This document shows, piece by piece, positions 9,563 to 44,714 of a stretch of DNA of 64,000 nucleotides. The notes below the pieces were generated by a model that ran no database searches, was not told the origin of the DNA, and was given only the letters and a program-made list of their open reading frames with translations. The stretch comes from an uncultured Clostridia bacterium (GTDB taxonomy: Bacteria > Bacillota > Clostridia > TANB77 > CAG-508): contig CANQGE010000001.1 in NCBI GenBank assembly GCA_947601495.1, positions 31,731 through 95,730 of the forward strand, in the 5' to 3' direction. A program made the translations under genes and the position numbers. The stretch's first letter is position 1, and every line of letters begins with the position of its first letter.

Positions 9563-9638
<76 letters not shown>

Positions 9639-21837: not shown

Positions 21838-21991
21838 TATCTAATATAGTTTATATAATTTAAAGGTAACGCGTAAGCGACCAACCGAAGCGAAAGCGAA
21901 GGGCGATTGGAGCAATCTTCATTTTGTTAATTTTAAAAAAAGAAGATTGCGACACCAAGTTACCGATAAATTATATAAACTATATTAGATA
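21838..21991 (-). repeat. long-hairpin element A: 25-bp perfect AT stem + 98-nt GC-rich core (copy 1 of a 2-copy family)
   Basis: The inverted repeat 21838-21862 / 21967-21991 is perfect. Core 21866-21963 is 91/98 identical to the reverse complement of 44554-44651. It contains a 9-bp helix GCAATCTTC/GAAGATTGC. The strand given is the one sharing sense with copy B. Confidence 0.85.
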
Positions 21992-22045
21992 ATGGTATTT
22001 TAATTAAACAGATATAATAAACTTAAAATAAAATTTTTGCTTCAA

Positions 22046-22075
22046 AATAAAAAACTCGGAACAAATCCGAGCTTT
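22046..22075 (-). terminator. rho-independent terminator after rpsO
   Basis: Stem CTCGGA / TCCGAG (22055-60 / 22066-71) followed by UUUUUU on the minus strand. Confidence 0.75.
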
Positions 22076-22078
22076 TAA

Positions 22079-22342
22079 TTATTTTCTTAAGTTTAATTTT
22101 TTAACTATTTCTCTATATCTGTTAACATCTTTCTTAGCTAAATAGTTTAATAAATTTCTTCTTTTACCAATCATTTTTAATAATCCTCTTCTAGAGTGAT
22201 TATCTTTTTGATGAACTTTTAAGTGTTCTGTTAATTCTGATATTCTTTCTGATAAAAGAGCAATTTGTACTTCTGGTGATCCAGTATCATTTTCTTCTCT
22301 CTTATAAGTATTAATAATTTCTTGTTTTCTTTCTTTAGTCAT
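22079..22342 (-). CDS. rpsO: 30S ribosomal protein S15
   Basis: The conserved S15 sequence starts at [14 protein letters not shown]...[10 protein letters not shown]. The ATG at 22342 has a GGAGGA RBS 8 nt upstream. The ORF-track start at 22375 adds 11 unsupported residues. Confidence 0.95.
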
Positions 22343-22478
22343 TATCTTTATCCTCCTATTTATTTTATTTGCCATAAGCTGAGTATAAAGTAGGTTTTTC
22401 CTTTAAACTAAGTTTGTGGTATTTTTTAACATAGCTATTGTACAATATTTTTTTTAAAAAATCAAGCATTTAGAAAAA

Positions 22479-23120
22479 TTAATCTAATTCTTCGCGTTCT
22501 TTTTCTTTTTTTGCTATATATAAAACTAATTCAACCACAGCAATAACTGTCATTAAGTTTACTATTACAGGTGATACTGGGATTCTTACTATTGCTATTA
22601 GGCTTGCTATAGCAAGTTCTGTTAAAGCAACTAGTACAAATAGTTTTCCTAACAATTCAAATGTATTCATTTTTCTAAATCTAATAACTAAATATGCAAC
22701 AATTACTACTACTGAAATAATTACTGGTTTTATATATGGTCTAATTAAATCTCTTATTCTTACATTTGAAACTTTCATTCTTTCAATATTTTCTGCTTCA
22801 AGCTCTGTTCCATATTTTTCATTTATTTTAGTTACTAAATTGTTTCTTTCTTCATCTGTGATAGATTGTGAGCTTATATTAAATGAATCTCTAAAGAAAT
22901 CTACACTTCTTACAACTACTGCTTTTTTTCCAAAAACTTCTTTACATATATCTTTTACTTCTTTTATATTTGTTTCTTTTCCTATAAATATATTTATTGA
23001 TTCATGTTGTTCTAACATTAAATATACATTAAATCCTTTCAATGCTACTACAACTAGTCCTGCAACTATTAAAAGAATCAAGCCCAATATAATTATTTTT
23101 TTGCTTCCATTTAATTCCAT
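22479..23120 (-). CDS. SecF-like membrane protein (divergent, only 4 predicted TM segments)
   Basis: Start at MELNGSKK (ATG 23120, GGAG RBS 7 nt upstream). Layout is TM1, a ~100-aa loop, then 3 TM segments. It sits at the syntenic position downstream of queA-tgt and directly after the SecD-like gene. The canonical GYSxNDTxVxFDRxRE motif and the last two TM segments are missing. Confidence 0.45.
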   Translation of the reverse strand: MELNGSKKIIILGLILLIVAGLVVVALKGFNVYLMLEQHESINIFIGKETNIKEVKDICKEVFGKKAVVVRSVDFFRDSFNISSQSITDEERNNLVTKINEKYGTELEAENIERMKVSNVRIRDLIRPYIKPVIISVVVIVAYLVIRFRKMNTFELLGKLFVLVALTELAIASLIAIVRIPVSPVIVNLMTVIAVVELVLYIAKKEKEREELD

Positions 23121-23145
23121 TGTTTTTCTCCTTTTATAAACTATT

Positions 23146-24573
23146 TTAAACATTTATAATAAACAAATAATTGTATAATGCTTGAAGGAATAATCCCCAG
23201 AATAGAATCATTCCTATACTGCTTATAACCACACTAGACATAAATGTAAATATTATAGAAATTGCACAAATAGGTATAATTGCTAAATACATTTTTTTCA
23301 TAGTTTCTAATAAAGCTATTTTCTTCATTTGGTTAGATTCTAATCTCTTTAAATATTTGATAACAAAAATATAATTTATAATTACTACAGCTACAGTAGC
23401 TATCAAAGCATTTACTGTTATTGCAACATTTGTATATCTTAATATAAGATTTAATAATCCTAAATATCCTAAAGTTAGTATAGAAGCTTTTAATCCTTCT
23501 AATTTAAATCTAATTATTAAATATAAACTTACAACAGCTATAGCTACTATAGTTACTATTTCTGCTACTAATTTTACATCATTAGTTAAAACAGAATTAA
23601 TACGATTATCTGAGCTCAATGTGTATTTTAAAGGTAAAGCATCATCATTTAAAATGTCTACTATCATTGATACACTTTGTGCAACTTCTTTATATTCATC
23701 AAAATCTTCTGTTGCTTGTCCCATAGGAATTTGTAACACGCCTGTTGCTAGTTCTTCGCCGAAATAAGTTGTACTAATAACTTGGTCGTCCATCTTTATA
23801 GAAATATAATTTGTTGTTTCTGTTCCATCTTCTGCTGTAACAGTTTGATATTTATTACTAATATCTTTTAATTTATCTTTTCCATCTTTTTCAAATGTTA
23901 GTTGTAAATATGCTTGGTATGAATTATTATTATTTGATGCTAACATTTTAGCTTCTTTTAAAGTTGAATCATCCATTAATATTAATCCATTTTGATAATC
24001 GATAATTTCAATTTTTCCAACTGTAGAAACTAAGGCTTGTTCAAGTGATAAATTTTCATTATCTGGTAATTCTATAATTATTTCTCCAGTAATACTATCT
24101 AGTCTTATATTATATTCATATACATCCATTTTTTCTAATCTAGATTGAATTACTTTTTTTGCTTTTTCGAAGTTTTCTTTTGTTATACTAGAATCTTCAT
24201 TTGCTTTTATTGTTCTTGTTTCTTTAGTATAGCCTTCTACTTCTGTCTTATCTTCTTCTGGTTCTTCAGTTTTTTCTGCTGATTGATCATTGGTATCTAA
24301 AGAAATTTCTGTATTTGAAGGAGTTTCTTCTTTTACTTCTCCTGCATAATTTCCACCAGCATCTACATATATTTCTTTTTCTTCTTCTGAGTTATCTAAT
24401 ACATAATGTAATTCTCTTTTTCCATCTAGCTCCATTCCTAGATTAAAATCTGGTAATATGTTTCTCCAAATTCCATAATTCTTAACATATAGTCCAACAA
24501 AAGCTACTACTGCTATTAATATTGCACCTAATAGTATTGTTATTGTTTTTACTGTTTTTAAATTCTTTTCCAA
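23146..24573 (-). CDS. SecD-like membrane protein (divergent)
   Basis: 475 aa: TM1, a large extracytoplasmic domain and 5 C-terminal TM segments. LGMELDGKRE resembles the SecD LGLDLxGG start. ISIKMDDQVISTTYFGEELATGVLQI resembles the P1 (IAIVLDGKVISAP...I.GG) segment. The TM4 motif MAVDANV is replaced by AVVIINY. Confidence 0.5.
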   Translation of the reverse strand: MEKNLKTVKTITILLGAILIAVVAFVGLYVKNYGIWRNILPDFNLGMELDGKRELHYVLDNSEEEKEIYVDAGGNYAGEVKEETPSNTEISLDTNDQSAEKTEEPEEDKTEVEGYTKETRTIKANEDSSITKENFEKAKKVIQSRLEKMDVYEYNIRLDSITGEIIIELPDNENLSLEQALVSTVGKIEIIDYQNGLILMDDSTLKEAKMLASNNNNSYQAYLQLTFEKDGKDKLKDISNKYQTVTAEDGTETTNYISIKMDDQVISTTYFGEELATGVLQIPMGQATEDFDEYKEVAQSVSMIVDILNDDALPLKYTLSSDNRINSVLTNDVKLVAEIVTIVAIAVVSLYLIIRFKLEGLKASILTLGYLGLLNLILRYTNVAITVNALIATVAVVIINYIFVIKYLKRLESNQMKKIALLETMKKMYLAIIPICAISIIFTFMSSVVISSIGMILFWGLFLQALYNYLFIINV

Positions 24574-24585
24574 AGTTATTACCTC

Positions 24586-25245
24586 CTATAATAAGTTTGT
24601 ATCATTTATAATTAATTCAAACCATAAACCTAAATATTTTGCTGCTCTTTTGCTCATTTTTGTTCTATCCATAAATATTTCAAAATAATCTATAACAGGA
24701 CAAATTTTTGTATCTATTGTTAAATTTAATATTGCTTTTCTTTCTTCAACATCAATTTTGAGCTCCGAATTTGTAACTGCATAATTTACTTCATCGTGTT
24801 TATCGAATAAACTTCTATCTTTTTTTGAAACTCTGCTTCTATGTGCATCAGATTTGTCTGCTAAAATAAGGGCCGCCGATATGTCGCTAACTGCTGTACC
24901 AGTTAATTCATCATGGTTTCCTATTGCCATCATAATTTCAGTTCTATCAGATGCTTCCATGTTCATATCTTTTAAAATATTATAAGCAAGAATCGCTCCG
25001 GTATGTGCATGGTCTACTCTGTTTACAGAATTACCAATATCATGCATATAGCCAGCAATCCTTGCAAGTTCTATTCTATGTTCATCATATCCTAGAGTTC
25101 TAAGTATGTTTCCTGCTCTTTCAGCAACTACAGATACATGTCTATTAGAATGTTCTGTATATCCTAAAACGTCTAATTGCTTTTGAGCATTTTTTATTAG
25201 TTCTTTTACTTCTACATTATTAACAACATCCTCAAAAGTTACCAT
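24586..25245 (-). CDS. HD-domain phosphohydrolase
   Basis: 219 aa with H...HD metal-site pattern (HSNRHV, YMHDIGN, GNHDE). AGGGAGGA RBS. Confidence 0.75.
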   Translation of the reverse strand: MVTFEDVVNNVEVKELIKNAQKQLDVLGYTEHSNRHVSVVAERAGNILRTLGYDEHRIELARIAGYMHDIGNSVNRVDHAHTGAILAYNILKDMNMEASDRTEIMMAIGNHDELTGTAVSDISAALILADKSDAHRSRVSKKDRSLFDKHDEVNYAVTNSELKIDVEERKAILNLTIDTKICPVIDYFEIFMDRTKMSKRAAKYLGLWFELIINDTNLL

Positions 25246-25345
25246 ATATCCTCCCTTGATTTTGTCTTATGTAAATTCTTGAATCATTATTCTTGTAAAT
25301 TGTATATTAAATTTTTAAAAATATCAACTATTTTAAATAAAATAT

Positions 25346-25699
25346 TTATTTAAAATTTACACCTATTATTCCACCAATTGCTCCTCCTAAGATTCCAAGA
25401 GCCATCATTATTATCGAATTAATATTTAAATTAAATTTTAAGTTTATAATACTTGATATCAAATATAGGATAACCATATATATAAATCCTAATATACTTC
25501 CATATAAAATTCCTTTTTCTTTTTTTATTCTTGAAATTCTAAATCCGCAAACTAAAAGTGAAAAGCTCACAATAGCAATTGTTACTGGAACAATTACAGT
25601 TTCACTTAAAGACGTTTCACTAAGCAAAATTGATAAGATAAAAATTAAAGCTACTGAAATTAGAATTGATAAAAAAGTTTCTCTAAAAAAATATTTCAT
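25346..25699 (-). CDS. small multi-pass membrane protein (YrzE-like position)
   Basis: 117 aa with 3-4 predicted TM segments and an AGGAGGA RBS. It lies between tgt and the secD-like gene, as small membrane genes do in other Firmicutes. Confidence 0.55.
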   Translation of the reverse strand: MKYFFRETFLSILISVALIFILSILLSETSLSETVIVPVTIAIVSFSLLVCGFRISRIKKEKGILYGSILGFIYMVILYLISSIINLKFNLNINSIIMMALGILGGAIGGIIGVNFK

Positions 25700-25733
25700 A
25701 AAATCCTCCTAAAAAATTTTTTAATTTAATTTT

Positions 25734-25922
25734 TTATTAACTATATAATATAACTGAATTGCAGCTATCGCTTTTGAAAGTAATTGAGTTAGAATTGCTT
25801 AATATATTTTACGGAAAGAGTTCACAAACTTGTGGAAGGGTGCCGTAAAATGTATTTAGCAATTCTACGAAAATTAGCTTGAACAAGATAGCGAAAATGA
25901 AGTTATATTATATAGCTAATAA
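25734..25922. repeat. long-hairpin element C: 189-nt imperfect palindrome with GC-rich tip
   Basis: Outer arms TTATTA(A/G)CTATATAATATAACT (25734.. / ..25922). Apical stem TAGAATTGCTTAATATATTTTACGG (25790-25814) / CCGTAAAATGTATTTAGCAATTCTA (25843-25867) has 2 mismatches. The 28-nt tip AAAGAGTTCACAAACTTGTGGAAGGGTG is about 46% G+C (about 50% with the flanking ACGG/CCGT pairs). Confidence 0.75.
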
Positions 25923-25967
25923 AGCTTATTTCTAAGTAAAAGTTTTTAAGCAAAAGTATATTTTTAA

Positions 25968-26006
25968 ACAAAAAAATACTTCTATAAAATTATATTTATA
26001 GAAGCA
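25968..26006 (-). terminator. rho-independent terminator after the WG-repeat protein gene
   Basis: 10-bp stem CTTCTATAAA / TTTATAGAAG (25979-88 / 25995-26004) followed by a U-run on the minus strand. Confidence 0.7.
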
Positions 26007-26037
26007 TTTTTTATAACTATTTAATATATCTTTTCTA

Positions 26038-27621
26038 TTAATTTGATGTATTTGAATTTGAAACTTTATTAGTTGTATTTTCAGTATTTGTAGAAGAATT
26101 TTTGTCAGTAGTTGTATTTGAAACTTTATTTTCATTAGAAGTTGTTTCACTTTCAGTATCGCTATTTTTTTCTTCATTCTCTTCTTTTTCATCTATGTTT
26201 ATAAGATTTTGTTCTTCTAAGAAATCTCTTAAAGGTCTTGCCTGTCCATCATGTTCCATATAATATGTTGTTTCTCCTGATTTTGTAATTGCATATATTT
26301 TAGTGCAAACACAAGGTAATACTATTCTTTCCTCAGTTATATCATATATTCCATATAGTTCATCTTTCTTTATAACAATTCCTTTTATTCCAACAGATGG
26401 TGGTATAAGAAGAACATTTTCTTCATGTCCTGATGTAGTTTCTTTTGAACCAGTTTTATATCCTAAATCATCTATTGTAATTGATAATATTAAATCTCCT
26501 TCTGTATTACATAATCCATATAAATCATCTTTTTGAACAGGTATAACTTCTCCAAAAAGTAATGATGAATTTTCAATATCGTCTAGTTCAAATTCAGAAG
26601 TATCAAAACCTATTGCATCATTTTCTGCATGAATAAGAGTTTTTCCATTTCTATTTACAACTCCAAATTCTCCATCTTTTTCTACTAAATAAAGTTGTTT
26701 TTCATCATCTAGCAAAGAAATATTTTCAAATTCTGACGGAGCAATTACTGTTCCACCATCTGAGTTTAATATTCCCATTGTTCCATTTGATGCAGTTACA
26801 TAAAATTCTTTTACATTTTGAACAAATTTTATATCATTATATTTTACACCTATTACTTCTCTGCCATTTTCGCTTAAAGAAATTACGCCATATAAATTAT
26901 CTTTTGAACCTTCTGTACCTTTTGAAACTATAACAAAATCATACAAAATTGATTTTAAGTTTTCATAATATCCACTTATTTGTGTATATCCAAGTTGAGC
27001 AATAGAAGATTTTGCTTGTTTAACTATATAATCTAAAGTATAAAATCTATATCTATATGGTTTCCAATCAATTCTTAAATTAAGCATTTCTGCAGCATCT
27101 TCTTTTGAAACATATATTTTTCCATCAATAAATTTTAAAGGATTTATTAAATCAAAGTTTTCGCAATAACCACTTTTATTTTTTGTAGTTACAACTATAT
27201 CTGCGATAGTAATTTTTTGACTAGTTGAAACCGTTGAAATATATTTTTGATATTTATTTTCATTAACTGACATTGCAACTATTTCAAAATCATTTTGTAA
27301 ATAGCAACTATCAGCATTTTCATTATATTTATTATATTCACCTTGATTATATGTATAGTTTAATAGAGTGGCTAATTCATTAGCATTTAAATATACTGTT
27401 CCTTCAATTTCTTTATAGAAATCATCTGGAAAGCTTTGTTGCTGATTATTATCTATAAATACTTTGTCTGTAACTGAATCTTGATATTGTAAAAGTAGAA
27501 TCATTGCAACAAGTCCTACTATTAAAAGTGCACATAATACTATAGAAAGCATAACTCCTTTTCTGTTTCTAGTATTTTTTTCCATTTTTTCTCTGTACAA
27601 ATCGCTTTCTTCTAAGTTCAT
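26038..27621 (-). CDS. membrane-anchored repeat protein (WG/KWG-like repeats) with N/T/S-rich tail
   Basis: 527 aa with one N-terminal TM segment (GVMLSIVLCALLIVGLVAMILLL). Aromatic-Gly units recur (LYGVISLSENGRE, EFGVVNRNGK, LYGLCNTEGD, LYGIYDITEE). The C-terminus is low complexity. Confidence 0.55.
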   Translation of the reverse strand: MNLEESDLYREKMEKNTRNRKGVMLSIVLCALLIVGLVAMILLLQYQDSVTDKVFIDNNQQQSFPDDFYKEIEGTVYLNANELATLLNYTYNQGEYNKYNENADSCYLQNDFEIVAMSVNENKYQKYISTVSTSQKITIADIVVTTKNKSGYCENFDLINPLKFIDGKIYVSKEDAAEMLNLRIDWKPYRYRFYTLDYIVKQAKSSIAQLGYTQISGYYENLKSILYDFVIVSKGTEGSKDNLYGVISLSENGREVIGVKYNDIKFVQNVKEFYVTASNGTMGILNSDGGTVIAPSEFENISLLDDEKQLYLVEKDGEFGVVNRNGKTLIHAENDAIGFDTSEFELDDIENSSLLFGEVIPVQKDDLYGLCNTEGDLILSITIDDLGYKTGSKETTSGHEENVLLIPPSVGIKGIVIKKDELYGIYDITEERIVLPCVCTKIYAITKSGETTYYMEHDGQARPLRDFLEEQNLINIDEKEENEEKNSDTESETTSNENKVSNTTTDKNSSTNTENTTNKVSNSNTSN

Positions 27622-27635
27622 AAAAATCCCTCACT

Positions 27636-28784
<1,149 letters not shown>

Positions 28785-29810: not shown

Positions 29811-29884
29811 TTTAAAATCCTTTCTAAATATTTTTTATTAAATATATTTTTAAATTTATATATAACTTTAAATTTTAATCTTTT

Positions 29885-30086
29885 AATTAGCAAAATTATA
29901 TTATTCAATTAAGTTTTTCCGTTCCAGCTAATTCTTATAGAAATTCTAAAATTATAAAATGCGCCTCTTTCGCTGCTCAAATCTTCGATTTGCCTTCGAA
30001 CATCCCTCATTTTATAATTTAAGAATTTCTATATAAGAATTACTCTCAATCCAAAACTTAATTTCATAATATAAATTTTGCTAATT
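29885..30086. repeat. long-hairpin element D: 202-nt hairpin (two ~30-bp AT stems, internal loop, 46-nt GC-rich tip)
   Basis: Basal stem AATTAGCAAAATTATATTAT..AATTAAGTTTT / AAAACTTAATT..ATAATATAAATTTTGCTAATT. The internal loop is TCCGTTCCAGC vs CTCTCAATCC. Upper stem TAATTCTTATAGAAATTCTAAAATTATAAAATG / CATTTTATAATTTAAGAATTTCTATATAAGAATTA. The tip 29962-30007 is about 50% G+C. Confidence 0.75.
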
Positions 30087-30090
30087 TTAG

Positions 30091-30684: not shown

Positions 30685-30699
30685 AATTTTTCCCTCACT

Positions 30700-31134: not shown

Positions 31135-31251
31135 AAAAATAACCCTTTTATTTTATAATAAATAATATTTATATAATTATTTGTAATTTAAACAAATATG
31201 TGATATTATACCAGTAAATTTAAAATATTACAATATAGGTGGTGATATATT

Positions 31252-32516: not shown

Positions 32517-33650
32517 TACATTTGCTAAATATTTCATACTGCTATTGCACTGTTCTAAAGTATTTCCTGTTGCTCCAACTTCTATTATGCATGCTCCATT
32601 TGCCACATGCTGATTGTATCTTGAATCTCTTAGTATTATTGGTTTAAAAAAACCCGGATACATTTCATTTGCTTTTTCCTGAATTTTTACTGCCAATTTT
32701 AAATTATTTATCCAGTTTGGATGCTCTAATCCTCCTCCATCACTTCCCATAACAAACATAACTTGAGCTACAACATCATCTCCTATTTGTACACAAGGTG
32801 CATAAGAACTATTATTTCCTAACGCATCTCTATGTAAATCTATTACAAATTCAGTATCATTGTTATTTGCAAGCATACTTTGAATTGTAGATAGTCCTCT
32901 AGTATATGAACCTGTGTATGCTGGATAATCGTGATATGTTGTATTATGAGTTACATTAAATCCAAATTCTGTAAGATAATTTGTAAGTTCAGTTCCAACT
33001 CTTGCCACACTTTTTTCTAAATCTATTGTTCTAAAATTTCCACTAGCGACATAATTGTTTTCTACTGTAGGAGTGTAACTTTCACAAGTATGTGTATGAT
33101 AAATTATAATGTTCTTTTTATTTGAAAAATCTATATTTGGATTTAGCATTTCTTGTGTAAGTGGATATTTAGATTCATTCTTTATTTTCACACTATTATA
33201 TGTATCTGTAAACTTATCAATTTTGTTATTGTCATCTATAACTTTTGTTGGGAGTAAGACATTTTCTAAATCATTTAAACTACTATTGTTTAAATTACTA
33301 TCACCATTTGTTTTGCCTAAATTAACATTATTCTCTTGGATTTCTGAATCCACTTGCTTTTCTTCTGAATTCAAAATTTTAATTTCTGACATTAACAATT
33401 TTTTAAATACACTTACATTTTCATTTTTAGTTTGTTCGTTTGAAAAAGATTTAGAAATTATAAGTGTATTATCTAATATTTTTTCTACGCCAAAATTAGA
33501 AAAATATTTTTCTTTAACAGCTGAAATATTTTTTGTAGTTTTAACTGCTCCTATAACTTTCCATAACACAAATAAAATAATTAAAAGTACTATACATTTT
33601 TTTATGAACTTAATTATATCTTTTAGGTTTATAACAGCTAAATTAATCAT
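32496..33650 (-). CDS. spoIIP: stage II sporulation protein P
   Basis: Has the SpoIIP signature IIIYHTHTCESY and DLHRDA. I prefer the ATG at 33650 (MINLAV..., GAGGA RBS) over the GTG at 33662. Confidence 0.88.
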   Translation of the reverse strand: MINLAVINLKDIIKFIKKCIVLLIILFVLWKVIGAVKTTKNISAVKEKYFSNFGVEKILDNTLIISKSFSNEQTKNENVSVFKKLLMSEIKILNSEEKQVDSEIQENNVNLGKTNGDSNLNNSSLNDLENVLLPTKVIDDNNKIDKFTDTYNSVKIKNESKYPLTQEMLNPNIDFSNKKNIIIYHTHTCESYTPTVENNYVASGNFRTIDLEKSVARVGTELTNYLTEFGFNVTHNTTYHDYPAYTGSYTRGLSTIQSMLANNNDTEFVIDLHRDALGNNSSYAPCVQIGDDVVAQVMFVMGSDGGGLEHPNWINNLKLAVKIQEKANEMYPGFFKPIILRDSRYNQHVANGACIIEVGATGNTLEQCNSSMKYLANVIKEVMK

Positions 33651-33712
33651 ATTTTTCCTCACTTACAAACAAGTATATTAATTTGAAATACAAATTATTA
33701 CTTAATTTAAAT

Positions 33713-33752
33713 TAAAAATGAACTTAAAATATTTCTAATATTCTAAGTTCAT
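33713..33752 (-). terminator. rho-independent terminator after hisS
   Basis: 14-bp stem GAACTTAAAATATT / AATATTCTAAGTTC (one mismatch) followed by UUUUU on the minus strand. Confidence 0.65.
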
Positions 33753-33828
33753 CTTCTATTTTAATTGTATTTTACTTTTCTATTAATATAATTAATTTAG
33801 CTGTTGTTTAATCTTTATTTTAAGAAGT

Positions 33829-35067: not shown

Positions 35068-35138
35068 TTCTTTCTCCCATCATTATAAATTTTTTATTGT
35101 TTAATTTTATGTTATTCATTATATAGTCTTTTAAATTT

Positions 35139-35789: not shown

Positions 35790-35800
35790 TTGTATTCTCC

Positions 35801-37999
35801 TTATCCTCTTTTTCTATTAACTTCATAAACGTTTTCAATATTTTTAAATGCAACTAATAGTTTGTTTAAGTTGTCTATATTTTCAACCTCAAGAGAAACA
35901 TTAATAATAGCAATGTTTTCTTTTGTAGTTCTCGTATTAACTCCCATAAGTTTTACTTTATAATTTTCAATTTGCTTTATAATATCTCTTAATAATCCAC
36001 TTCTATCTGTTGCTAAAATTTCTATTTCAACTTTGTAAATTCCATTTACATCATCAAACCAATATACATCTATCATTCTGTCTTCTTCATTAAATAAGTC
36101 TTTTACATTAGGGCAATCTGTACGATGAACTGAAACTCCTCTACCTTTTGTAATATATCCTATTATATCGTCTCCTGGCAAAGGGTTACAGCATTTTGAA
36201 AGTTTTACTAAGCAGTTATCTATTCCTTTTACAACAACACCTGTTTTTGAAGGTCTACTAACAAATGTTTTTGTTTTAGATAGCTCTTCTATTTTTTGCT
36301 CAAAATCTTCATCTTCGTGCTCTTTTCTATATTCATCAAGAAGTCTTGCCATAAGTTTATTTACAGAGATTCCACCAAAACCAATGCTAGCATATAAATC
36401 ATCTACTGTTTGGAATTTGTATCTTTCTAATACCAAATTAATCCATTCTGGCTTTACTAAATCAGAATATTTTATTCCTATTTTCTTAACTTCTTTATCA
36501 ACAATGTCTTTTCCTCTTTCAATGTTTTCAGCTCTTTGAGCTTTTTTAAACCATTGATTAATTCTTGTTTTAGCAGAAGAACTTTTTACAAATTTTATCC
36601 AGTCTCTACTTGGTCCTTTAGATTGCTCTGAAGTAATTATTTCTACTATATCTCCATTTCTAAGAGGAGTTATAATAGGCATCATTTTACTATTTATTTT
36701 GCAACCTACCATTTTATGTCCTATTTGTTCATGTATGCTGTATGCAAAATCTATTGGAGTAGCTCCTTTTGGTAAAACTTTAATCATTCCTTTTGGTGTA
36801 AAAATATATACTTCATCTTCAAACAACTCTGTTTTTAATGTGTTTAAAAATTCATCTGGATTTTCAGTATTTTTCTGCCACTCTAAAGTTTCACGAAGCC
36901 AAGCTAATTTATCATCTGTAACAACTACAGATTCTTTAGTTCCTTTATTGCTTGCTTCTTTATAAGCCCAGTGAGCCGCTATACCAAACTCTGCTGTTCT
37001 ATGCATGTCCCAAGTACGTATTTGAACTTCAAATGGAGTTCCTTTTGGTCCTAAAAGAGTTGTATGTATAGATTGATACATATTTTTCTTAGGAACAGCA
37101 ATATAATCTTTAAACCTTCCTGGCATAGGTGTATACATTTCATGCACAATTCCAAGCACAGCATAACAATCTTTTACAGTATCTACTAGTATTCTTAAAG
37201 CAAATAAATCATAAATTTGATCTAGTGTTTTATTATCTCTTTTCATTTTTCTATAAATACTATATAAGTGTTTTGCTCTACCTGTTACATCTGCTTTAAT
37301 TCCTTGATTTTTGATTTCTTCTTTTAAATCTGACTGTATTTTTTCTAGGAATTTTAGTCTTTCTTCTCTTTTTTTATCTAGTCCATTAACAATTTCATGA
37401 TACTCATCTGGATGTAAATATTTAAAACTTAAATCTTCTAATTCCCATTTTAAAGAATAAATACCTAGTCTATTTGCAAGAGGTGCATATAAATCTTGTG
37501 TTTCTTGTGCATTTGCAATTTGTCTGTCTCTAGGCAAATATTTTAAAGTTCTCATATTGTGAAGTCTATCTGCTAGTTTTATTAATATAACTCGTATATC
37601 TTTTCCCATTGCAAGAAACATTTTTCTATAATTTTCAACTTGCTCTTCTTCTCTAGTTGTATATCTTAAAGTTCCAAGTTTTGTAACACCTGAAACCATT
37701 TCAGAAATAGTTTCTCCAAATTCATTTTTTAAATCTTCTTGAGTTATACCAGTATCTTCTACAACATCATGTAAAAGAGCAGCACATAAAGTTTCATCAT
37801 CTAATTCTAGAGTAGATAATATGTATGCAACATTTAAAGGGTGAATCATATATGGTTCACCAGACCTTCTAAGTTGTTCCCCATGATTTTTCTTAGCAAA
37901 TTCATAAGCTCTTCTTATAAGATCTTCATTTACATTTGCATAATTTTCTTTTTGTTTTTCAATTATATCATCTATTGTTATTTGCTTAGTTTCAGACAT
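35801..37999 (-). CDS. relA: bifunctional (p)ppGpp synthetase/hydrolase (RSH)
   Basis: 732 aa with an HD hydrolase domain (HDVVEDT), a synthetase domain (GRAKHLYSIYRKM, YQSIHT), and TGS and ACT C-terminal domains. Confidence 0.95.
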   Translation of the reverse strand: MSETKQITIDDIIEKQKENYANVNEDLIRRAYEFAKKNHGEQLRRSGEPYMIHPLNVAYILSTLELDDETLCAALLHDVVEDTGITQEDLKNEFGETISEMVSGVTKLGTLRYTTREEEQVENYRKMFLAMGKDIRVILIKLADRLHNMRTLKYLPRDRQIANAQETQDLYAPLANRLGIYSLKWELEDLSFKYLHPDEYHEIVNGLDKKREERLKFLEKIQSDLKEEIKNQGIKADVTGRAKHLYSIYRKMKRDNKTLDQIYDLFALRILVDTVKDCYAVLGIVHEMYTPMPGRFKDYIAVPKKNMYQSIHTTLLGPKGTPFEVQIRTWDMHRTAEFGIAAHWAYKEASNKGTKESVVVTDDKLAWLRETLEWQKNTENPDEFLNTLKTELFEDEVYIFTPKGMIKVLPKGATPIDFAYSIHEQIGHKMVGCKINSKMMPIITPLRNGDIVEIITSEQSKGPSRDWIKFVKSSSAKTRINQWFKKAQRAENIERGKDIVDKEVKKIGIKYSDLVKPEWINLVLERYKFQTVDDLYASIGFGGISVNKLMARLLDEYRKEHEDEDFEQKIEELSKTKTFVSRPSKTGVVVKGIDNCLVKLSKCCNPLPGDDIIGYITKGRGVSVHRTDCPNVKDLFNEEDRMIDVYWFDDVNGIYKVEIEILATDRSGLLRDIIKQIENYKVKLMGVNTRTTKENIAIINVSLEVENIDNLNKLLVAFKNIENVYEVNRKRG

Positions 38000-38017
38000 T
38001 TTAAATCCCCTTTTAGT

Positions 38018-39706
38018 CTAATATGATTTTCTCATATCTTTCATATTTATTTGCACATTTTTAATTCCATTAAAGGTATTTGTCTCTAGTACCCCAATTA
38101 TATCTACTTTATCACCAATTAAATATTCTTCCGAATATTTGCCCATATTAAATCCTATTGCATTAATAATTGTATTATTATCTTTTAGTGTTAGTTTTAG
38201 ATGTTTTCCTTCTGATAATGCTCTAATTGAATCTATTTTCAAATTTTTATAAATAAAAATAGGTGTTTTATTTGATTCTCCAAAAGGTTCAAGTAATTTT
38301 AAACTTTCTATATTTTCTAAAGAAATATCTTTTAAATTAATTTCTTTATCTATTTTTATAACTGGCATTATTTCAGCTATTTCTGCTTCTTCGGCAATCT
38401 TTTCAAATTTAGCTTTGAAATTTTCAAATTGACTCTTTTTTAAACTTAAGCCAACTGCCATTTCGTGTCCACCATATTTTTCTAAGTAGTCACTTGATTT
38501 GCAAAGTGCATCATGTAGGTCAAAACCTGGAATACTTCTTCCTGAGCCTTTACCATTTTCTCCTTCAAAACATATTAATATACTTGGTTTGAAATATAGC
38601 TCAGTTATTTTAGAAGCTACTATTCCTATAACTCCGTGGTGCCAATTTTCTGAGCCAAGTACAATTGTTTTTTTCTCATCAATTTTATCTTTTTCAATTT
38701 TAGAAATTGCTTCTTCAAAAATTTTTTTCTCTATTGTTTGTCTTTGCTTATTATATGAATCTAATTTTTCTGTTATTTTATTTGCTTCTACTATATTTTC
38801 TGTTAAAAATAAATTTAATGCATCTCTTTCATGTCCCATTCTTCCACAAGCATTAATTCTAGGAGCTATTCCAAATGAAACTGTATTTGAATTTATTTCA
38901 CTATATCCTGCTACTTTTAATAAAGCTTTTACAGCGGGGGAATTAGTTTGCTTAACTAGTTTTAGTCCAAGTTTTGCTATAACTCTATTTTCATCAATTA
39001 AAGGAACTATATCTGATATTGTTCCAATGCAAACAATATCTAAATATTTTAAGTATTCTTTTTCATCTAATTTTAATTTCATTCCTATAGCTTGTATTAA
39101 TTTAAAAGCTACTCCAACACCTGCTAAGCTGTTAAAAGGATATTTATTATCTTTTCTTTTACAATCTATTACAGCTAAGGCTTTAGGAAGTTCATCTAGT
39201 GGTTCGTGGTGGTCTGTGATAATAACTTCCATCCCCAAACTATATGCATAGTTTACTTCTTCTGTTCCGGAAATTCCACAATCAACAGTTATAATTAATT
39301 TATATCCTTCATCTGCAATTTGTTTTATTGCTTCTTGATTTAGTCCATATCCTTCATCTAGACGATTTGGTATATATGTTCCAACATTTAATCCTAATTC
39401 TTTTAGAAATTTTGATAAAACAGTTATACTTGTAATTCCATCAACATCATAATCACCATATATCATAATTTTTTCTTGTTTTTTTATGCCTTCTATAATT
39501 CTATCAACAGCTATTTTCATATCTGGCATTAAATATGGGTCATGAAAGTCATTTCTTGTAGGATTTAAAAAAACTTTTATGTCTTCATCGTCTGTTATAT
39601 CTCTATTTACTAAAACTGTTGCTAATAATTCTGATATTTCAAATTTTTCAGAAATTTCTTTAATTTTCTTCTCATCAGAATTATAATATTCCCACTTTTT
39701 GTTCAT
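38018..39706 (-). CDS. recJ: single-stranded-DNA-specific exonuclease RecJ
   Basis: 562 aa with DHH motifs (GDYDVDGITS, TVDCG, ITDHH) and DHHA1 (GGHEMAVG). Confidence 0.95.
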   Translation of the reverse strand: MNKKWEYYNSDEKKIKEISEKFEISELLATVLVNRDITDDEDIKVFLNPTRNDFHDPYLMPDMKIAVDRIIEGIKKQEKIMIYGDYDVDGITSITVLSKFLKELGLNVGTYIPNRLDEGYGLNQEAIKQIADEGYKLIITVDCGISGTEEVNYAYSLGMEVIITDHHEPLDELPKALAVIDCKRKDNKYPFNSLAGVGVAFKLIQAIGMKLKLDEKEYLKYLDIVCIGTISDIVPLIDENRVIAKLGLKLVKQTNSPAVKALLKVAGYSEINSNTVSFGIAPRINACGRMGHERDALNLFLTENIVEANKITEKLDSYNKQRQTIEKKIFEEAISKIEKDKIDEKKTIVLGSENWHHGVIGIVASKITELYFKPSILICFEGENGKGSGRSIPGFDLHDALCKSSDYLEKYGGHEMAVGLSLKKSQFENFKAKFEKIAEEAEIAEIMPVIKIDKEINLKDISLENIESLKLLEPFGESNKTPIFIYKNLKIDSIRALSEGKHLKLTLKDNNTIINAIGFNMGKYSEEYLIGDKVDIIGVLETNTFNGIKNVQINMKDMRKSY

Positions 39707-39776
39707 TCCTTTCCTCCTAAAATAAATTTTTCCTTAGTATTATATAACAAAATGTAAATAAAAGATAGTTTTTAAA

Positions 39777-39816
39777 TAAAAAAAATAGAAACTGGACAAA
39801 AAATATCCAGTTTCTT
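39777..39816 (-). terminator. rho-independent terminator after the ylbF-like gene
   Basis: Perfect 10-bp stem AGAAACTGGA / TCCAGTTTCT followed by a long U-run on the minus strand. Confidence 0.8.
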
Positions 39817-39819
39817 TTT

Positions 39820-40152
39820 TTATAATACATCTTTAATAGATTCTCCAATAATTTTATTGACATCAGCAATTAAAACATTAAATCTAACTTCTTTGTCAAA
39901 GTAATCTTTAACTTGAGCATTTTGAACTAATATTTGATAAAGTTCTTGTAATTTTTTCATTTTTTCATCACTTTGCTTTTCGCCTTGCATAGCAAGAAGT
40001 TGCTCTTCATAACGAATTTTTTCAAATTCATCAACCTGTTTTTTTAATTCAGGCATAGCAAGCAATTCTGTTTTTACTTTTTTATACTCATTATATTCTC
40101 TTGATTCTTTAAGAGCTCTCGCTAAATTATTTACTTCATCATAAACATTCAT
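39820..40152 (-). CDS. YlbF/YmcA-family regulatory protein
   Basis: 110 aa, all-helical. MNVYDEVNNLARALKESREYNEYKKVK... resembles the UPF0342/YlbF family. Confidence 0.6.
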   Translation of the reverse strand: MNVYDEVNNLARALKESREYNEYKKVKTELLAMPELKKQVDEFEKIRYEEQLLAMQGEKQSDEKMKKLQELYQILVQNAQVKDYFDKEVRFNVLIADVNKIIGESIKDVL

Positions 40153-40175
40153 TAAAATTTTCTCCTTTTACATCC

Positions 40176-41765
40176 TTAATAATAAACCATATAATCAATT
40201 TCTGGGAATATATCATCTTTGTTAAATATATCTAATAAATATTTTGGGTCTATTTTATCATTTTTTATTTGATAATATAGCTTCGTAAATCTTCCTATAT
40301 GGTCTTTAATTGCTTTATGTGCATATTCTACCATTGTTCCATTTGTAATTATAAATAGCCAGTCACTACTTTGTGCAAGTAAAAGTTCTCTTGCACATTG
40401 ATTTAATGCTTGTCTTCTTAATGTATCTCCTTCATTTGGGAACATGCTTGCAAGTTCACACATTCTATCTCCAGCTTTATGTAAGTGTCTATGTGCATAG
40501 TCATTTGTTTGATTTAGCCAAACTTCACTATAGCCATTTGCTCCCCAACTTGATCTACAAGGTGTAGAAACTTGCATTTCAGGATACATATCTATATATT
40601 CACTAGGTGTAATTAATTTAAAATTACATTCATCATAATAGATTTTTTTAAATAATATATAAAGCCAATATGGTCCCTCATACCACCAATGTCCATAAAG
40701 CTCTGCATCATATGGACAAGTAATAATTGGTGGAACGTCCATATAGCTTGCTAAATGGTCTATTTGAGCAGTTCTGCAATCCATAAAATGTCCTGCTTGC
40801 TTTTCAGCAGAATCTTTTGCCCATTGAATATCATAATAATCTTTATTATCTGTTTTTCCAGTAATTCTATAATATTTTATACCTGTGTTTACTCTTGCAC
40901 CATTACTTGCTATATATGGTTTTATATAGTCATAATCTGTATCATAGCCAATATCTCTATAGAATTCTCTATAGTTGAAATCGCCTGGATATCCAGAAAT
41001 TGAACTCCAAACCTGTCTTGATGATTCTAAATCTCTTGCAAATGCTACTAATCCACCATGAGAAACTATTGGTGCATAAGTTCCATAAATTGGAGTTGGA
41101 TCTGCATATAAAACTCCGTGTGTTTCAACTATTGCATATTCTATTCCAAATTCTTTAAGATACTTATCTGCTTCTGGAACATATCCACATTCTGGAAGCC
41201 AAATTCCTCTAGGATTTCTTCCAAAGAATTTTTTATATGTTTGAACACCAACTGCAATTTGTGCTCTAACAGTTTTTTCATTTACATATAAAATTGGAAA
41301 ATATCCATGAGTTGCTCCACAAGTGATAATTTCCAATACTCCAATGTCTTGAAAATGTTTAAATCCAGAAATTAAATTACAATCATAAACATCTTGAAAT
41401 ACATGTAAATCATTTGTGTATCTATCTAAATAGTAATGTGATAAGTTGTTTAATCTTTTATCGTAAACTGTTCTTTTAACTTCTTTTTCACATAATTCTA
41501 TATGTTTATTTAAATATTTAATATATCTTTCTTTTAAAAGTTTATTATCTAACATATTTAAAAGCGGTGGAGTCATTGTCATTGTGATTCTAAAATCTAC
41601 ATGTTCTTCTTCTAATTTTTTAAAATTTAGTAAAAGTGGTATATATGTTTCAGATATTGCTTCAAAAAGCCATTCTTCTTCTAAGTAGCCTTCACTTTCT
41701 GGATGATGAATATATGGCAAATGAGCATGTAAAACAAAATTGACATATCCTTTAATATTTTTCAT
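40176..41765 (-). CDS. GH57-family 1,4-alpha-glucan branching enzyme
   Basis: 529 aa. N-terminal FVLHAHLPYIHHPE, and WLPECGY and HGYFP segments typical of GH57 branching enzymes. Confidence 0.85.
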   Translation of the reverse strand: MKNIKGYVNFVLHAHLPYIHHPESEGYLEEEWLFEAISETYIPLLLNFKKLEEEHVDFRITMTMTPPLLNMLDNKLLKERYIKYLNKHIELCEKEVKRTVYDKRLNNLSHYYLDRYTNDLHVFQDVYDCNLISGFKHFQDIGVLEIITCGATHGYFPILYVNEKTVRAQIAVGVQTYKKFFGRNPRGIWLPECGYVPEADKYLKEFGIEYAIVETHGVLYADPTPIYGTYAPIVSHGGLVAFARDLESSRQVWSSISGYPGDFNYREFYRDIGYDTDYDYIKPYIASNGARVNTGIKYYRITGKTDNKDYYDIQWAKDSAEKQAGHFMDCRTAQIDHLASYMDVPPIITCPYDAELYGHWWYEGPYWLYILFKKIYYDECNFKLITPSEYIDMYPEMQVSTPCRSSWGANGYSEVWLNQTNDYAHRHLHKAGDRMCELASMFPNEGDTLRRQALNQCARELLLAQSSDWLFIITNGTMVEYAHKAIKDHIGRFTKLYYQIKNDKIDPKYLLDIFNKDDIFPEIDYMVYY

Positions 41766-41800
41766 TGAATTTTTCCTTTCAGTTTAATGTTAAAATCTTT

Positions 41801-42745
41801 TTATTTAAAAGTTGAACTTGAAAGTTTTGAAGATGGATTTGCCATATCAAACATACCTTCAGAAAGTTCTTCATCATATTGTTTTTGATAGAAGTCATTT
41901 ACATCGAATTTCTTTCCTAAGATAGTTTTTGTTTTTCTTAAATCTTTAACAAATTCTCTATTTGTTTTTACATCTCTAAAAGTAACACGATTTGATAAAT
42001 ATTCTAGTAGTACATGATCATTTGGTGCTTCTAAAACATTTGAATTTGCAAAAGGCAAATAATCTGTTTGAAGATTTATGTGATTTTCTTTTACCTTTTC
42101 CACATTTATAGCTTGATTTCTATCTATAAATTTTCTTCCAAGTTGAATTGTGTATTTTGTTTTTGGGTCATCTATATCTATGTACCAACTATTAGCAAAA
42201 TCGTTTATAGGTACCTCTTTTACATACTTTTTATCTTCATTATATACTAATAAAACAGGATAAGTAATTTCAAAGAATTTTTCTCCAAATGCATTTAAAT
42301 ATCTATCTCTATCACTATCAGCGACGTCCCAATATACGAATAATTTTTTAGGAGTTTGAGCAAGAATTTTTACAATAGTTTCATTATATCTGTATGGTAA
42401 ATCGTAGTATTCTAATATGTAATCTTTTTTAATATTTTTCTTTTCAGTTTTTTCTTTTTTCGCAGAAGAAGCTGTTGTTTTTGCGTTTTCTTTTTCAGTA
42501 GCAATTGAATCTTCTTCAGCCTCTTGCATAGAAATTATTTTTGATAAAAACTGCTTTATTTTTTCAATTACAGCATTTTCATTAATGTTCTTTGCTTTTT
42601 CTAATTTTTCTTTCTTGCTTCTTTCCCTAATTTTTTGAACTAATTCGTTAGGATTAGAAAAAATATTTTTTTGTGAAAAATCCTCAATTTTTAAAATGTC
42701 ATCACTATTCTTTTCAAACTCTTCATTTTTTAGCATTTTACCCAT
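41801..42745 (-). CDS. DUF4912-like protein (partner of GH57 branching enzymes)
   Basis: YDLPYRYNETIVKILAQTPKKLFVYWDV... matches my memory of DUF4912. The start is probably the ATG at 42745, directly after AAGGAGG. The ORF-track TTG at 42829 has no RBS. Confidence 0.6.
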   Translation of the reverse strand: MGKMLKNEEFEKNSDDILKIEDFSQKNIFSNPNELVQKIRERSKKEKLEKAKNINENAVIEKIKQFLSKIISMQEAEEDSIATEKENAKTTASSAKKEKTEKKNIKKDYILEYYDLPYRYNETIVKILAQTPKKLFVYWDVADSDRDRYLNAFGEKFFEITYPVLLVYNEDKKYVKEVPINDFANSWYIDIDDPKTKYTIQLGRKFIDRNQAINVEKVKENHINLQTDYLPFANSNVLEAPNDHVLLEYLSNRVTFRDVKTNREFVKDLRKTKTILGKKFDVNDFYQKQYDEELSEGMFDMANPSSKLSSSTFK

Positions 42746-43090
42746 TTTCCTCCTTAGTAATTCCCTGTAAAATATTAGTATAAGTCCAATAATAATTAAT
42801 ATTATATCTTTAATGTAAAAAAACTTCAATAGAAAAAATAAAATAAATTTTTTTTAAATTTTTTGTAATATAATCTTATAATTGTAACTAAAATGTAATA
42901 GAAATACGCGATTTTTTTGTCAAAAAATGTTTACTTTTGTTTTGGTTTTATATAAAATATATGAAGAATTAAGAAAATAATTTTTGAATTTTTTTCTTAA
43001 ATAATCAAGATTTGAAATAATTTTTTTTAAATTCAAAACTACTTGACAAAATTAAAATAACAAAAGATATGAAAGGAGCACTTTTTTACA

Positions 43091-44377
43091 ATGAAAATTT
43101 TAATGCTATCATGGGAATATCCACCAAGAGTTGTTGGAGGTATATCAAGAGTGGTTTATGACTTATCACACAAATTATGTATGCAAGGTCATAAAGTTAC
43201 CGTTATTACTTATAAAGATGGTAATGTACCATATTTTGAAGATGATGATGGTGTTGATGTTTACAGAGTAGATAATTTTATGATTGCTCCTAATAATTTT
43301 ATAGATTGGGTTATGCAACTTAATTTCAATATGATAGCAAAAGCTGGAGAAATTATTGCACAACAAGGAAACTTTGATGTTATACATGCTCATGATTGGC
43401 TTACTGCTTATGCTGGAAAAACATTAAAATTTGCATATAATACTCCTCTTGTAGCTACTATACATGCTACTGAAGCTGGTAGAAATAGCGGTATTAGAGG
43501 TGATATGCAAAAATATATTAATGATACTGAATGGATGCTTACTTATGAATCTTCAGAAGTTATCGTTAATAGTAATTATATGAAAAACGAATTACAAAGA
43601 CTTTTTGGTCTTCCTTATGAGAAAATAAATGTAGTACCTAATGGTGTTGATCTTACTTTATTTAATGGAATTGATAGAGACTATGAATTTAGAAGAAGAT
43701 TTGCCATGGATAATGAAAAAATTATTCTATTCATGGGTAGATTAGTTTATGAAAAAGGTATTCAAACACTTATTTCTGCTATGCCTAAAATCTTAGACAA
43801 TTATCATGATGCAAAATTAGTTATCGCAGGAAAAGGCGGAATGATTAATGAATTAAGAAATCAAGTTAATTTCCTTGGATTAGGAAATAAAGTTTATTTC
43901 ACAGGACACTTAGCTTCTAAAGATGTTCAAAAAATGTACAAGTGTGCTGATGTTGCTGTATTCCCTAGTACATATGAACCTTTTGGAATTGTAGCTATTG
44001 AAGCTATGCTTTCTGGAACACCAGTAGTTACTTCTGATGTTGGTGGATTAAATGAAATTGTAGAACATGGAGTAAATGGAATGAAAAGTTATGCTGGAAA
44101 TCCAAACTCTCTTGCAGATTCTATTCTTGCATTATTATTTAATCCAGAATTATGCAACACAGTTTCAAAAAATGCAAAAGAAAAAGTTAAAGCTCAATAT
44201 AATTGGACTAAAATTACAGAAGAAACTCACTTCACTTATGAAACAGCTATTTGTGAAACTATTGCAGAAAGACAAAAGAAACAAATTGCTCAAGAAGAAG
44301 CTCGTAATCAAATTAAAAAATCTAAAGAAGTTACAAACCTACTTTCATTCAAGAAAACTCACGAGGCATTTGCATAA
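43091..44377 (+). CDS. GT4-family glycosyltransferase (glycogen synthase-like)
   Basis: 428 aa. N-terminal MKILMLSWEYPPRVVGGISRVV and the C-terminal E-x7-E region (STYEPFGIVAIEAMLSGTPVV). Divergent from the GH57/DUF4912 operon. Confidence 0.8.
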   Translation: MKILMLSWEYPPRVVGGISRVVYDLSHKLCMQGHKVTVITYKDGNVPYFEDDDGVDVYRVDNFMIAPNNFIDWVMQLNFNMIAKAGEIIAQQGNFDVIHAHDWLTAYAGKTLKFAYNTPLVATIHATEAGRNSGIRGDMQKYINDTEWMLTYESSEVIVNSNYMKNELQRLFGLPYEKINVVPNGVDLTLFNGIDRDYEFRRRFAMDNEKIILFMGRLVYEKGIQTLISAMPKILDNYHDAKLVIAGKGGMINELRNQVNFLGLGNKVYFTGHLASKDVQKMYKCADVAVFPSTYEPFGIVAIEAMLSGTPVVTSDVGGLNEIVEHGVNGMKSYAGNPNSLADSILALLFNPELCNTVSKNAKEKVKAQYNWTKITEETHFTYETAICETIAERQKKQIAQEEARNQIKKSKEVTNLLSFKKTHEAFA

Positions 44378-44408
44378 GATTTTAATAAAATATGTTTATA
44401 ATAATATA

Positions 44409-44445
44409 AAAACTCTTAGGAATTATTTTCTTAAGAGTTTTTTTG
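44409..44445 (+). terminator. rho-independent terminator after the GT4 gene
   Basis: Stem AACTCTTAGGAA / TTCTTAAGAGTT (one mismatch) followed by TTTTTT. Confidence 0.75.
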
Positions 44446-44454
44446 ATAAGAAAA

Positions 44455-44521
44455 ATTGCTTAATATTATTAACATTGCTTAATAATATTATTAAATATTA
44501 ATCAATACTATTAATCAATAC
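44455..44521. repeat. two pairs of short tandem direct repeats
   Basis: ATTGCTTAATATTATTAAC / ATTGCTTAATAATATTATTAA (44455-44494), then TATTAATCAATAC x2 (44496-44521), abutting the left arm of element B. Confidence 0.7.
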
Positions 44522-44527
44522 TATTGT

Positions 44528-44677
44528 GAATGCTTAAAAAATATAATTTAATAGTAACTTGGTGTCGCAATCTTCTTTTTTATAAATAAACAAAAGGAAG
44601 ATTGCTCCAATCGCCCTCCGCTTATGCTTCGGTTGGTCGCTTACGCGTTACTATTTAATTATATTTTTTAAGCATTC
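44528..44677 (+). repeat. long-hairpin element B: second copy of the 98-nt GC-rich core, inverted relative to element A
   Basis: Core 44554-44651 is the reverse complement of 21866-21963 at 91/98 identity. The outer stem GAATGCTTAAAAAATATAATTTAATA / TATTTAATTATATTTTTTAAGCATTC is 26 bp with one mismatch. Confidence 0.85.
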
Positions 44678-44714
44678 ATAATATTTTTTGCAATTAATTT
44701 TAAAAATTATTTTA

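Follow-up and report, generated by a model that had tools for sequence, protein, structure and literature searches.

Families of stem-loop intergenic repeats and miniature inverted-repeat transposable elements (MITEs) described so far include ERIC, Correia (CREE), RUP, bcr1, Clop-1 and Clot-1 (PMC2267715, PMC2229807). Although bacteria commonly carry stem-loop repeats, those of uncultured gut Clostridia have been poorly catalogued. Inverted repeats are also subject to template switching, for which arm homogenisation, spacer inversion and arm expansion have been reported (PMC8604942, PMC5941160, PMC13100816). Here we describe four long hairpins, designated A to D, in a 64 000-nucleotide stretch of DNA (the window) from an uncultured Clostridia bacterium (GTDB lineage Clostridia; TANB77; CAG-508), which spans positions 31 731–95 730 of contig CANQGE010000001.1 in the assembly GCA_947601495.1. 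On balance, they probably belong to three dispersed families of palindromic non-coding repeats, of the MITE or stem-loop-repeat kind, ∼ 150–220 bp in length and located between the genes of AT-rich gut Clostridia. Families of stem-loop repeats of this kind have already been catalogued in other bacteria; the architecture of these three is unusual, combining a conserved structured centre with free arms and frequent inversion of the interior. The elements are not terminators and are not the product of a local process.

The window has a G+C content of ∼ 26% and its genes lie mostly on the minus strand; judged by homologues of its PNPase, the source organism groups with uncultured Clostridia of the rabbit gut. 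Inverted-repeat detection and folding placed all four hairpins where an earlier note on this DNA had reported them; the neighbouring genes named here were identified by Pfam assignment. Element A, between rpsO and pnp, is a near-perfect hairpin at 21838–21991 with an outer imperfect palindrome at 21793–22047; the purine-rich strand of its conserved core (∼ 21866–21963), which reads GCGTAAGCGACC..., is the plus strand and thus antisense to both genes. Element B (25733–25923, plus strand) lies between the genes for a WG-repeat protein and a DUF3792 protein and carries the motif GGAAAGAGTTCAC...GTGGAAGGGTGCC, invariant in its family, at 25813–25844. Element C is a nested hairpin (29885–30086, core 29961–30008, purine-rich strand minus) between coaE and queA, and element D (∼ 44490–44715, core ∼ 44554–44651, purine-rich strand minus) separates a GT4 glycosyltransferase gene from convergent genes. 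When compared with dinucleotide shuffles, the minimum free energies of A–D have z-scores of −6 to −9, and no shuffle equals the native folding. A strict scan of the 64 kb for inverted repeats (ungapped arms of at least 24 nt, at least 88% complementary, spacer 20–160) returned A, C and D only and found nothing in 30 dinucleotide shuffles; B was missed solely because its arms carry mismatches. The description of the hairpins as intergenic, with A/T-rich arms and G+C-richer centres, was borne out for all four.

Elements A and D are two copies of one family in opposite orientation: the plus strand of A and the minus strand of D are 89.5% identical over 124 nt, and the arms beyond that are unrelated. 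The family has a conserved core of ∼ 95 nt with covarying stems and long A/T arms. An 18-mer from this core is found at 71 loci in the species-representative genome set, of which 69 are in metagenome-assembled genomes (MAGs) of AT-rich Clostridia from rabbit, goat, buffalo, mouse and other guts, and the other two are chance matches in G+C-rich genomes. The MAG closest to the window, GCA_947628085.1 (Lapin-015 bin83, hereafter bin83; ∼ 95% DNA identity), contains 30 exact matches to this 18-mer and also has D (locus L025). A covariance model built from 58 copies detects only A (111.9 bits, E = 3e-30) and D (112.1 bits) in the window and gives 83 matches in the fetched loci, including ∼ 10 additional copies in the ∼ 560 kb fetched around known ones. 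The earlier note had pointed to four such structures in 23 kb, with none in the other 41 kb, as the sign of a locally active process. There are indeed none elsewhere in the window, but the same 23 kb holds a fifth hairpin, E (see below), and two A/D copies in 64 kb approximate the density in loci of related genomes and therefore do not form a local cluster. The 30 matches in bin83 are spread over 14 contigs, so the process is not a local one.

The consensus fold of the A/D core is a four-way junction closed by a stem, P1, which extends outward as the long arm. Compensatory changes are seen in all five aligned pairs of P1, in six of the nine pairs of stem P2 and in 11 of the 22 pairs of the fold overall. 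The core includes two mini-hairpins of the GC-GNNA/GNA-GC type, with GNRA-like GUAA and GAAA loops, and invariant junction strands; ∼ 45 of its positions show little or no variation. At 5–6 bp from the junction there is a recurrent internal loop of purines (A·A, GAA/UGA or AAA/AA), and the stem-proximal pentamers vary between copies (GTAAC, GTGAC, GCACC, AACCC, GAGCT). Three A/D copies stand in tandem at L038:2432–2858 (comparison loci are denoted by L), with a spacing of ∼ 160 nt, and the copy at L045:6988–7147, between spoVAD and spoVAC, has in its P2 loop an extra insert of ∼ 100 nt with a hairpin of its own.

Elements B and C represent two further families, separate from A/D. The proposal that the four hairpins share one design, as an element family, was thus right in that A/D and B belong to multi-copy families and C has relatives, although there are three such families rather than one. 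A second copy of B in bin83 (L014) is 80% identical to it and shows compensatory changes. The invariant motif of the B family, GGAAAGAGTTCA-N4-14-TGGAAGGGTGCC, occurs at at least 120 loci in gut metagenomes, and the same loci share an invariant 8 × 8 purine-rich internal loop; in an alignment of 38 members, 41 of 49 pairs carry compensatory changes. Copies of the B family occur widely in gut metagenomes from humans and animals. Element C has a relative in L209, and its family is rarer than the other two. In ∼ 17 orthologous human-gut contigs, a complete B-type element stands between C-type half-cores (TGAGGAATGCTCACGG ... GAGTGAGAGAGGCTCA); in this composite (L129:1700–1940 and orthologues), the B-type hairpin is nested within the tip of the C-type shell.

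Syntenic comparison loci for A–D were collected through homologues of PNPase and of the GT4 glycosyltransferase. The window, L002, L087 and L088 represent four strains with ∼ 95% identity (∼ 95.6% between L088 and the window); L005, L007 and L089 (for the A-type locus, also L006) represent the sister species, and L084–86 are more distant. Element A is found in the window and L088 but not in L002 or L087, in which the flanks are otherwise identical; in the sister-species loci L005–L007 it has the flipped orientation. All four strains have elements B and C, which are missing from L005, L007, L089 and L084–86 and are, therefore, derived. Element D is missing from L210 and L212, where the shared terminator alone remains. 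The comparison with empty sites that the earlier note had proposed was thus positive for all four hairpins, which vary in presence at orthologous sites. No joined arms and no palindrome matching the arms were found at the empty sites for A (L002, L087), for B and C (L005, L084) or for D (L210, L212); part of the left arm of B, TTATTAGCTATA, is present once at the empty site in L005. The locus pairs L056/L030 and L065/L072 were too diverged to serve as empty-site comparisons.

Duplication of a hairpin can be seen in bin83, where two copies 5 kb apart (L043:2464 and L043:7595) have the entire hairpin in common, from AAGCTCTTAG to CTAAGAGCTT, and unrelated flanks. Since this pair shares its arms but not its flanks, the whole hairpin is the duplicating unit. 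It is the only convincing case of shared distal arms among 351 within-genome pairs; two other pairs pass the 0.8 cut-off for distal arms, with proximal arms that are only ∼ 0.7 identical. The unit that has been gained, lost and duplicated is the whole hairpin.

The interiors of the hairpins, in turn, change orientation between otherwise stationary arms. In L088, the interiors of B and C are reverse-complemented relative to the window with their outer arms unmoved, and along with the inversion of B a single G/A mismatch in its arms has turned into a perfect pair. Between species, A-type cores differ in orientation relative to their flanks at three orthologous loci, and the B-type part of the composite element is flipped in L129 compared with L115 and other human-gut samples. 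The evidence for both orientations comes from assemblies of different strains or samples, not from cells of one clone. The two arms of a copy remain complementary, although arms of different copies have diverged to the similarity of random sequences: in bin83, identity between the arms of different copies is at the random level (0.33–0.36) beyond ∼ 25 nt, whereas ungapped complementarity within a copy is 0.65–0.86 out to ∼ 35 nt, staying high to ∼ 35–40 nt, and gapped alignments are nearly perfect. Isolated mismatches in the arms comprise 16 of the G·T type and 16 of the A·C type in A/D and ∼ 41 and ∼ 33, respectively, in the B family. These similar counts indicate that upkeep of the arms is strand-symmetric, as expected for a process at the level of DNA.

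How an arm can arise is illustrated by hairpin E (33633–33805, no strand assigned, fold z-score −7.2), which is all A/T, has no G+C-rich core and lies outside the three families. Its right arm repeats, in inverted form and ∼ 130 nt upstream, the 20 nt with which the spoIIP coding sequence begins, including the start codon. The sister species keeps the spoIIP coding start and lacks the inverted copy, having a hisS terminator in its place. Arms can, therefore, arise by copying of flanking sequence. In the mRNA, E could occlude the spoIIP start codon. Outside the 21838–44677 range, the only other notable inverted repeat in the window is an intergenic all-A/T palindrome at 60689–60747 with 24-nt arms and an 11-nt loop.

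Each element thus consists of a conserved G+A-rich structured core flanked by long A/T-rich inverted-repeat arms. The observations suggest a mechanism in which intramolecular template switching, or recombination between the arms, would homogenise them, and in which the same processes may lengthen the arms by copying the flanks and may invert the core. Spread to new sites would be the work of a putative trans-acting enzyme or of recombination, either of them recognising the folded core; such recognition would explain why the core is conserved rather than the termini.

Several findings weigh against the view of A–D as dispersed MITE-like repeats. Their termini are not conserved, unlike those of classical MITEs, and there is no clear target-site duplication at the boundaries of A, B, L031/L052 or the L043 pair, where the A/T-rich flanks make short duplications ambiguous. 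Short AGC(T)AAAAAT repeats at A were considered as a target-site duplication and found unconvincing. Among the open reading frames (ORFs) of the fetched loci there is no autonomous partner, transposase or recurrent neighbour protein: all-against-all clustering of the ORFs within 2–2.5 kb of 70 A/D and ∼ 100 B copies produced only clusters of orthologous housekeeping genes. The cores hardly vary from one host species to another, and when the window is compared with L002, element B is identical at 190 of 191 positions and C at 202 of 202, as against 93–98% for the flanking genes. Conservation of this kind, exceeding in B and C that of the adjacent genes, points to a function beyond mere selfish persistence. 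Lastly, the P2 loop looks genome-specific (by eye) even at orthologous loci, which suggests conversion between copies or their turnover.

A function at the RNA level is the most probable of the alternatives, although we consider it rather unlikely. In that case, the hairpins would be structured-RNA genes or modules, with the purine-rich core serving as a protein-binding site, a ribozyme or a mimic of Shine–Dalgarno or anti-Shine–Dalgarno sequences and the stem as a determinant of RNase III cleavage, processing or stability. The four-way junction of A/D with its covarying P1 and P2, invariant junction strands, GNRA-like loops and purine internal loop is what such an RNA might look like, as is the constant internal loop of B, and the conservation of the cores across hosts, above the level of the flanking genes in B and C, fits it as well. 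All A/D copies are intergenic, and those in tandem gene contexts show a mild bias in orientation (27 antisense vs 13 sense, counts that are not phylogenetically independent), but there is no such bias in B (23 vs 19). Furthermore, G·U pairs are not in excess over A·C in arms or stems, and strains of one species differ in the orientation of the interiors, so that the opposite strand would be transcribed. These same points weaken the reading as processing or stability modules, which the earlier note had named as a further option. Element A is found between a terminator and a promoter-like site, and D beyond terminators. Consensus scans found no more promoter-like sites within the elements than expected from shuffles; a TATAAG-like box in the proximal arm was rejected as an internal promoter, not being common to other subfamilies. 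No Rfam family matches the elements: at the gathering threshold, Rfam 15 identifies a single tRNA in the window, and permissive scans of A–C, D and a B-family member returned only noise. The orientation polymorphism, seen within species for B and C, between species for A-type elements and between human-gut samples, might instead mark the hairpins as invertons, programmed switches that a site-specific recombinase flips to phase-vary neighbouring genes. They do hold a conserved segment between inverted repeats, and A, B and C lie just upstream of genes. However, a recombinase would have to act at the arms, whose sequences are not kept from one copy to the next, no recombinase gene recurs in the neighbourhoods, the elements have no promoter signal and many copies are found between convergent genes (29 of 82 in the B family). 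Template switching, moreover, is known to invert the spacer of any inverted repeat as a by-product (PMC8604942), and of all the explanations weighed here programmed switching strikes us as the least probable.

The earlier note had suggested insertion into hairpin targets such as terminators, as known for some insertion sequences (ISs) and class C group II introns. In this model a small cassette, made of the core and short proximal arms, inserts into the tips of existing palindromes or terminators, and the distal arms are what remains of the old target. This would account for distal arms that are unrelated between copies and complementary within a copy, some of which, including those of B-family copies, resemble terminator stems with runs of A and T. 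The B-type element in the tip of a C-type shell, the ∼ 100-nt insert in the P2 loop of L045 and the single occurrence of part of the left arm of B at the L005 empty site can all be cited in its favour. Against it stand the empty sites of A, B, C and D, which have no palindrome matching the arms, and the two copies in one genome that have complete arms in common; a single copy of an arm at an empty site, as found for B and E, is more readily explained by flank copying than by an earlier hairpin. The terminators beside A, B and D are, in addition, intact and separate from the hairpins. The intrinsic terminator of rpsO (22050–22076, minus strand), 58 nt upstream of A in gene orientation, is kept in strains with and without A. 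That of the WG-repeat gene (25970–26012, minus strand, read from the sequence), ∼ 48 nt upstream of B, is kept in species that lack B, and the bidirectional terminator between the GT4 gene and its convergent neighbours (44408–44444, no strand assigned, read from the sequence), which adjoins D without being part of it, is kept in both L210 and L212. With the adjacent terminators intact and no arms at the empty sites, the arms of A, B and D were rejected as pre-existing terminators. Insertion into hairpin tips thus appears improbable and is not supported for A–D, even though one hairpin element is nested in the tip of another elsewhere, where insertion into a tip may have taken place. Nor is there evidence for a class C group II intron or an IS: the elements have no ORF, measure ∼ 150–220 nt and have no intron match in Rfam.

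The placement of the hairpins relative to terminators was only partly as reported. The distance of 40–85 nt downstream of a terminator is correct for A and B; element C, which begins 5–8 nt past the coaE stop codon, has no terminator before it, and the plus-strand ‘terminator’ noted near it is the start of queA. Element D does adjoin a stop codon, but this codon belongs to a doubtful 86-amino-acid ORF (44715–44975, minus strand) that has no Pfam match and in whose place the closest MAG (L025) has unrelated sequence; the 3′ end of this ORF contains a terminator-like hairpin (44738–44761). In our terminator scan the neighbouring terminators were flagged and the hairpins were not, and the idea that the hairpins themselves are intrinsic terminators was rejected, their stems being A/T-rich, 20–40 bp long and placed around an interior of 50–120 nt, whereas such a terminator has a G+C-rich stem of 5–14 bp with a T tract after it.

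Downstream of A, the window has a promoter-like site for pnp (TTGATT-17-TAAAAT, 21722–21750, minus strand) in a block conserved across species, which puts A between a terminator and a promoter. The site is followed by a conserved pnp leader (21610–21720, minus strand) with a GTAGCTTGTACAATGTATTAT...ATATTGTAGAGGTTAC stem that is nearly invariant across species at 84–95% genome identity and is probably a hairpin that serves in pnp autoregulation or as an RNase III site. At L082:7582–10000, from a species whose PNPase is 94% identical, rpsO and pnp are separated by an insertion of four small genes, one of them with a faint trypsin-like match. In the sister species, the A-type element is flanked by A/T-rich minisatellites of the TTATTTATTAA type and with GAATATAAAAATTAATTTAAAG units (L005:9330–9500 and 9620–9830; also in L006 and L007), whose copy number differs between samples. 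Next to C, L002 and L088 have extra segments between the coaE stop codon and the element (L002:1664–1735, ∼ 70 nt, and L088:1400–1520, ∼ 110 nt). These are in part repeats of the TTAGCAAAAT start of the arm, and the surroundings of C are thus themselves variable between strains.

Whether the three families are related to each other is a separate question. By eye, the cores of B and C share GGAAnGnGTTCAC ... GTGRAARGRG, and the A/D core also has GAAGGGYG, on the 3′ side of a small hairpin. We regard these shared motifs as a lead towards a possible superfamily. Motifs of the GAAGGG/GAAAGAG type in the cores resemble a Shine–Dalgarno sequence on one strand and an anti-Shine–Dalgarno sequence on the other. 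In the most far-reaching reading, which we put forward as a long shot, the three families would form one superfamily, an undescribed kind of mobile element defined by a folded purine-rich core and not by its termini. Such elements would spread as whole hairpins and nest in each other's tips, and their arm-mediated flipping would act as a heritable two-state switch; the state of the flip would choose between Shine–Dalgarno-like and anti-Shine–Dalgarno-like loops in read-through transcripts of the neighbouring genes.

The three families have no match in Rfam and were not found in the literature searchable by sequence; queries with the exact core sequences returned nothing relevant. Collections of plasmids and phages contain no match to the elements, and a pattern scan of IMG/VR gave a single chance match, inside an ORF. 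The families reverse the usual logic of MITEs, with the centre conserved and the ends free, and they provide clear cases from nature in which the spacer of an inverted repeat is inverted and its arms are corrected or grow. They cause structural variation at the level of strains and can break or mis-join assemblies, and annotation pipelines will mistake such hairpins for terminators, small RNAs or microRNA-like hairpins. If the core is found to serve as an enzyme's recognition module or to function as an RNA, hundreds of natural variants would be available for working it out.

Among the known systems compared, class C group II introns have intron domains such as domain V, measure at least 600 nt and sit directly after a terminator stem; the hairpins are ∼ 200 nt long and A and B lie 48–58 nt from intact terminators. 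Elements derived from IS200/IS605 carry subterminal hairpins, lack long terminal repeats and insert 3′ of a fixed tetra- or pentanucleotide, whereas A–D have arms of 20–40 nt and no fixed flanking motif. The attC sites of integrons form cassette arrays next to intI and have RYYYAAC/GTTRRRY core sites. The three families resemble attC and other folded single-strand recombination substrates in that the structure is kept and the stem sequence is not, with unpaired stem bases at fixed positions, but they are dispersed among housekeeping genes and have variable stem-proximal sequences. Invertible promoter and untranslated-region switches are known in gut bacteria, for example the flgB and cwpV switches of C. 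difficile and the invertons of Bacteroides. They share with the elements described here a segment between inverted repeats, a position upstream of genes and the occurrence of both orientations; such switches, however, are locus-specific and have recombinase-specific repeats, whereas here one core occurs tens of times per genome with unrelated arms, often between convergent genes; conserved recombinase repeats are missing, no recombinase recurs nearby and promoter-like sites are at the level of the shuffles.

Closer parallels exist with quasipalindrome template switching (PMC8604942, PMC5941160, PMC13100816, PMC7202029), which is matched by the arm correction of B in L088, the inversion of spacers, the flank-copied arm of E and the strand-symmetric pairing. 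This process acts on any inverted repeat and accounts for neither the conserved core nor its spread to new loci. REP sequences, BIMEs and the RAYT-mobilised REPINs are, like A–D, dispersed palindromic intergenic repeats, often found after genes and serving as targets for other insertions, but REPs are G+C-rich palindromes of 20–40 nt with conserved arms and a variable loop, and the three families are the reverse, the arms not being conserved. Families of the ERIC/Correia type have conserved terminal inverted repeats, usually with the whole element conserved, and frequent target duplication (TA for Correia); in the A–D families the centre is conserved and the arms are at the random level beyond ∼ 25 nt, no clear target duplication and no parent IS was found, and within the fetched loci there are no conserved terminal repeats common to an autonomous IS. 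In other respects the elements agree with the definition of MITEs as short (< ∼ 500 bp), non-coding, multi-copy and dispersed, being 150–220 nt long and without an ORF. With ERIC, Correia, RUP, bcr1, Clop-1 and Clot-1 they share a mostly intergenic location, long hairpins and a presence that varies between strains.

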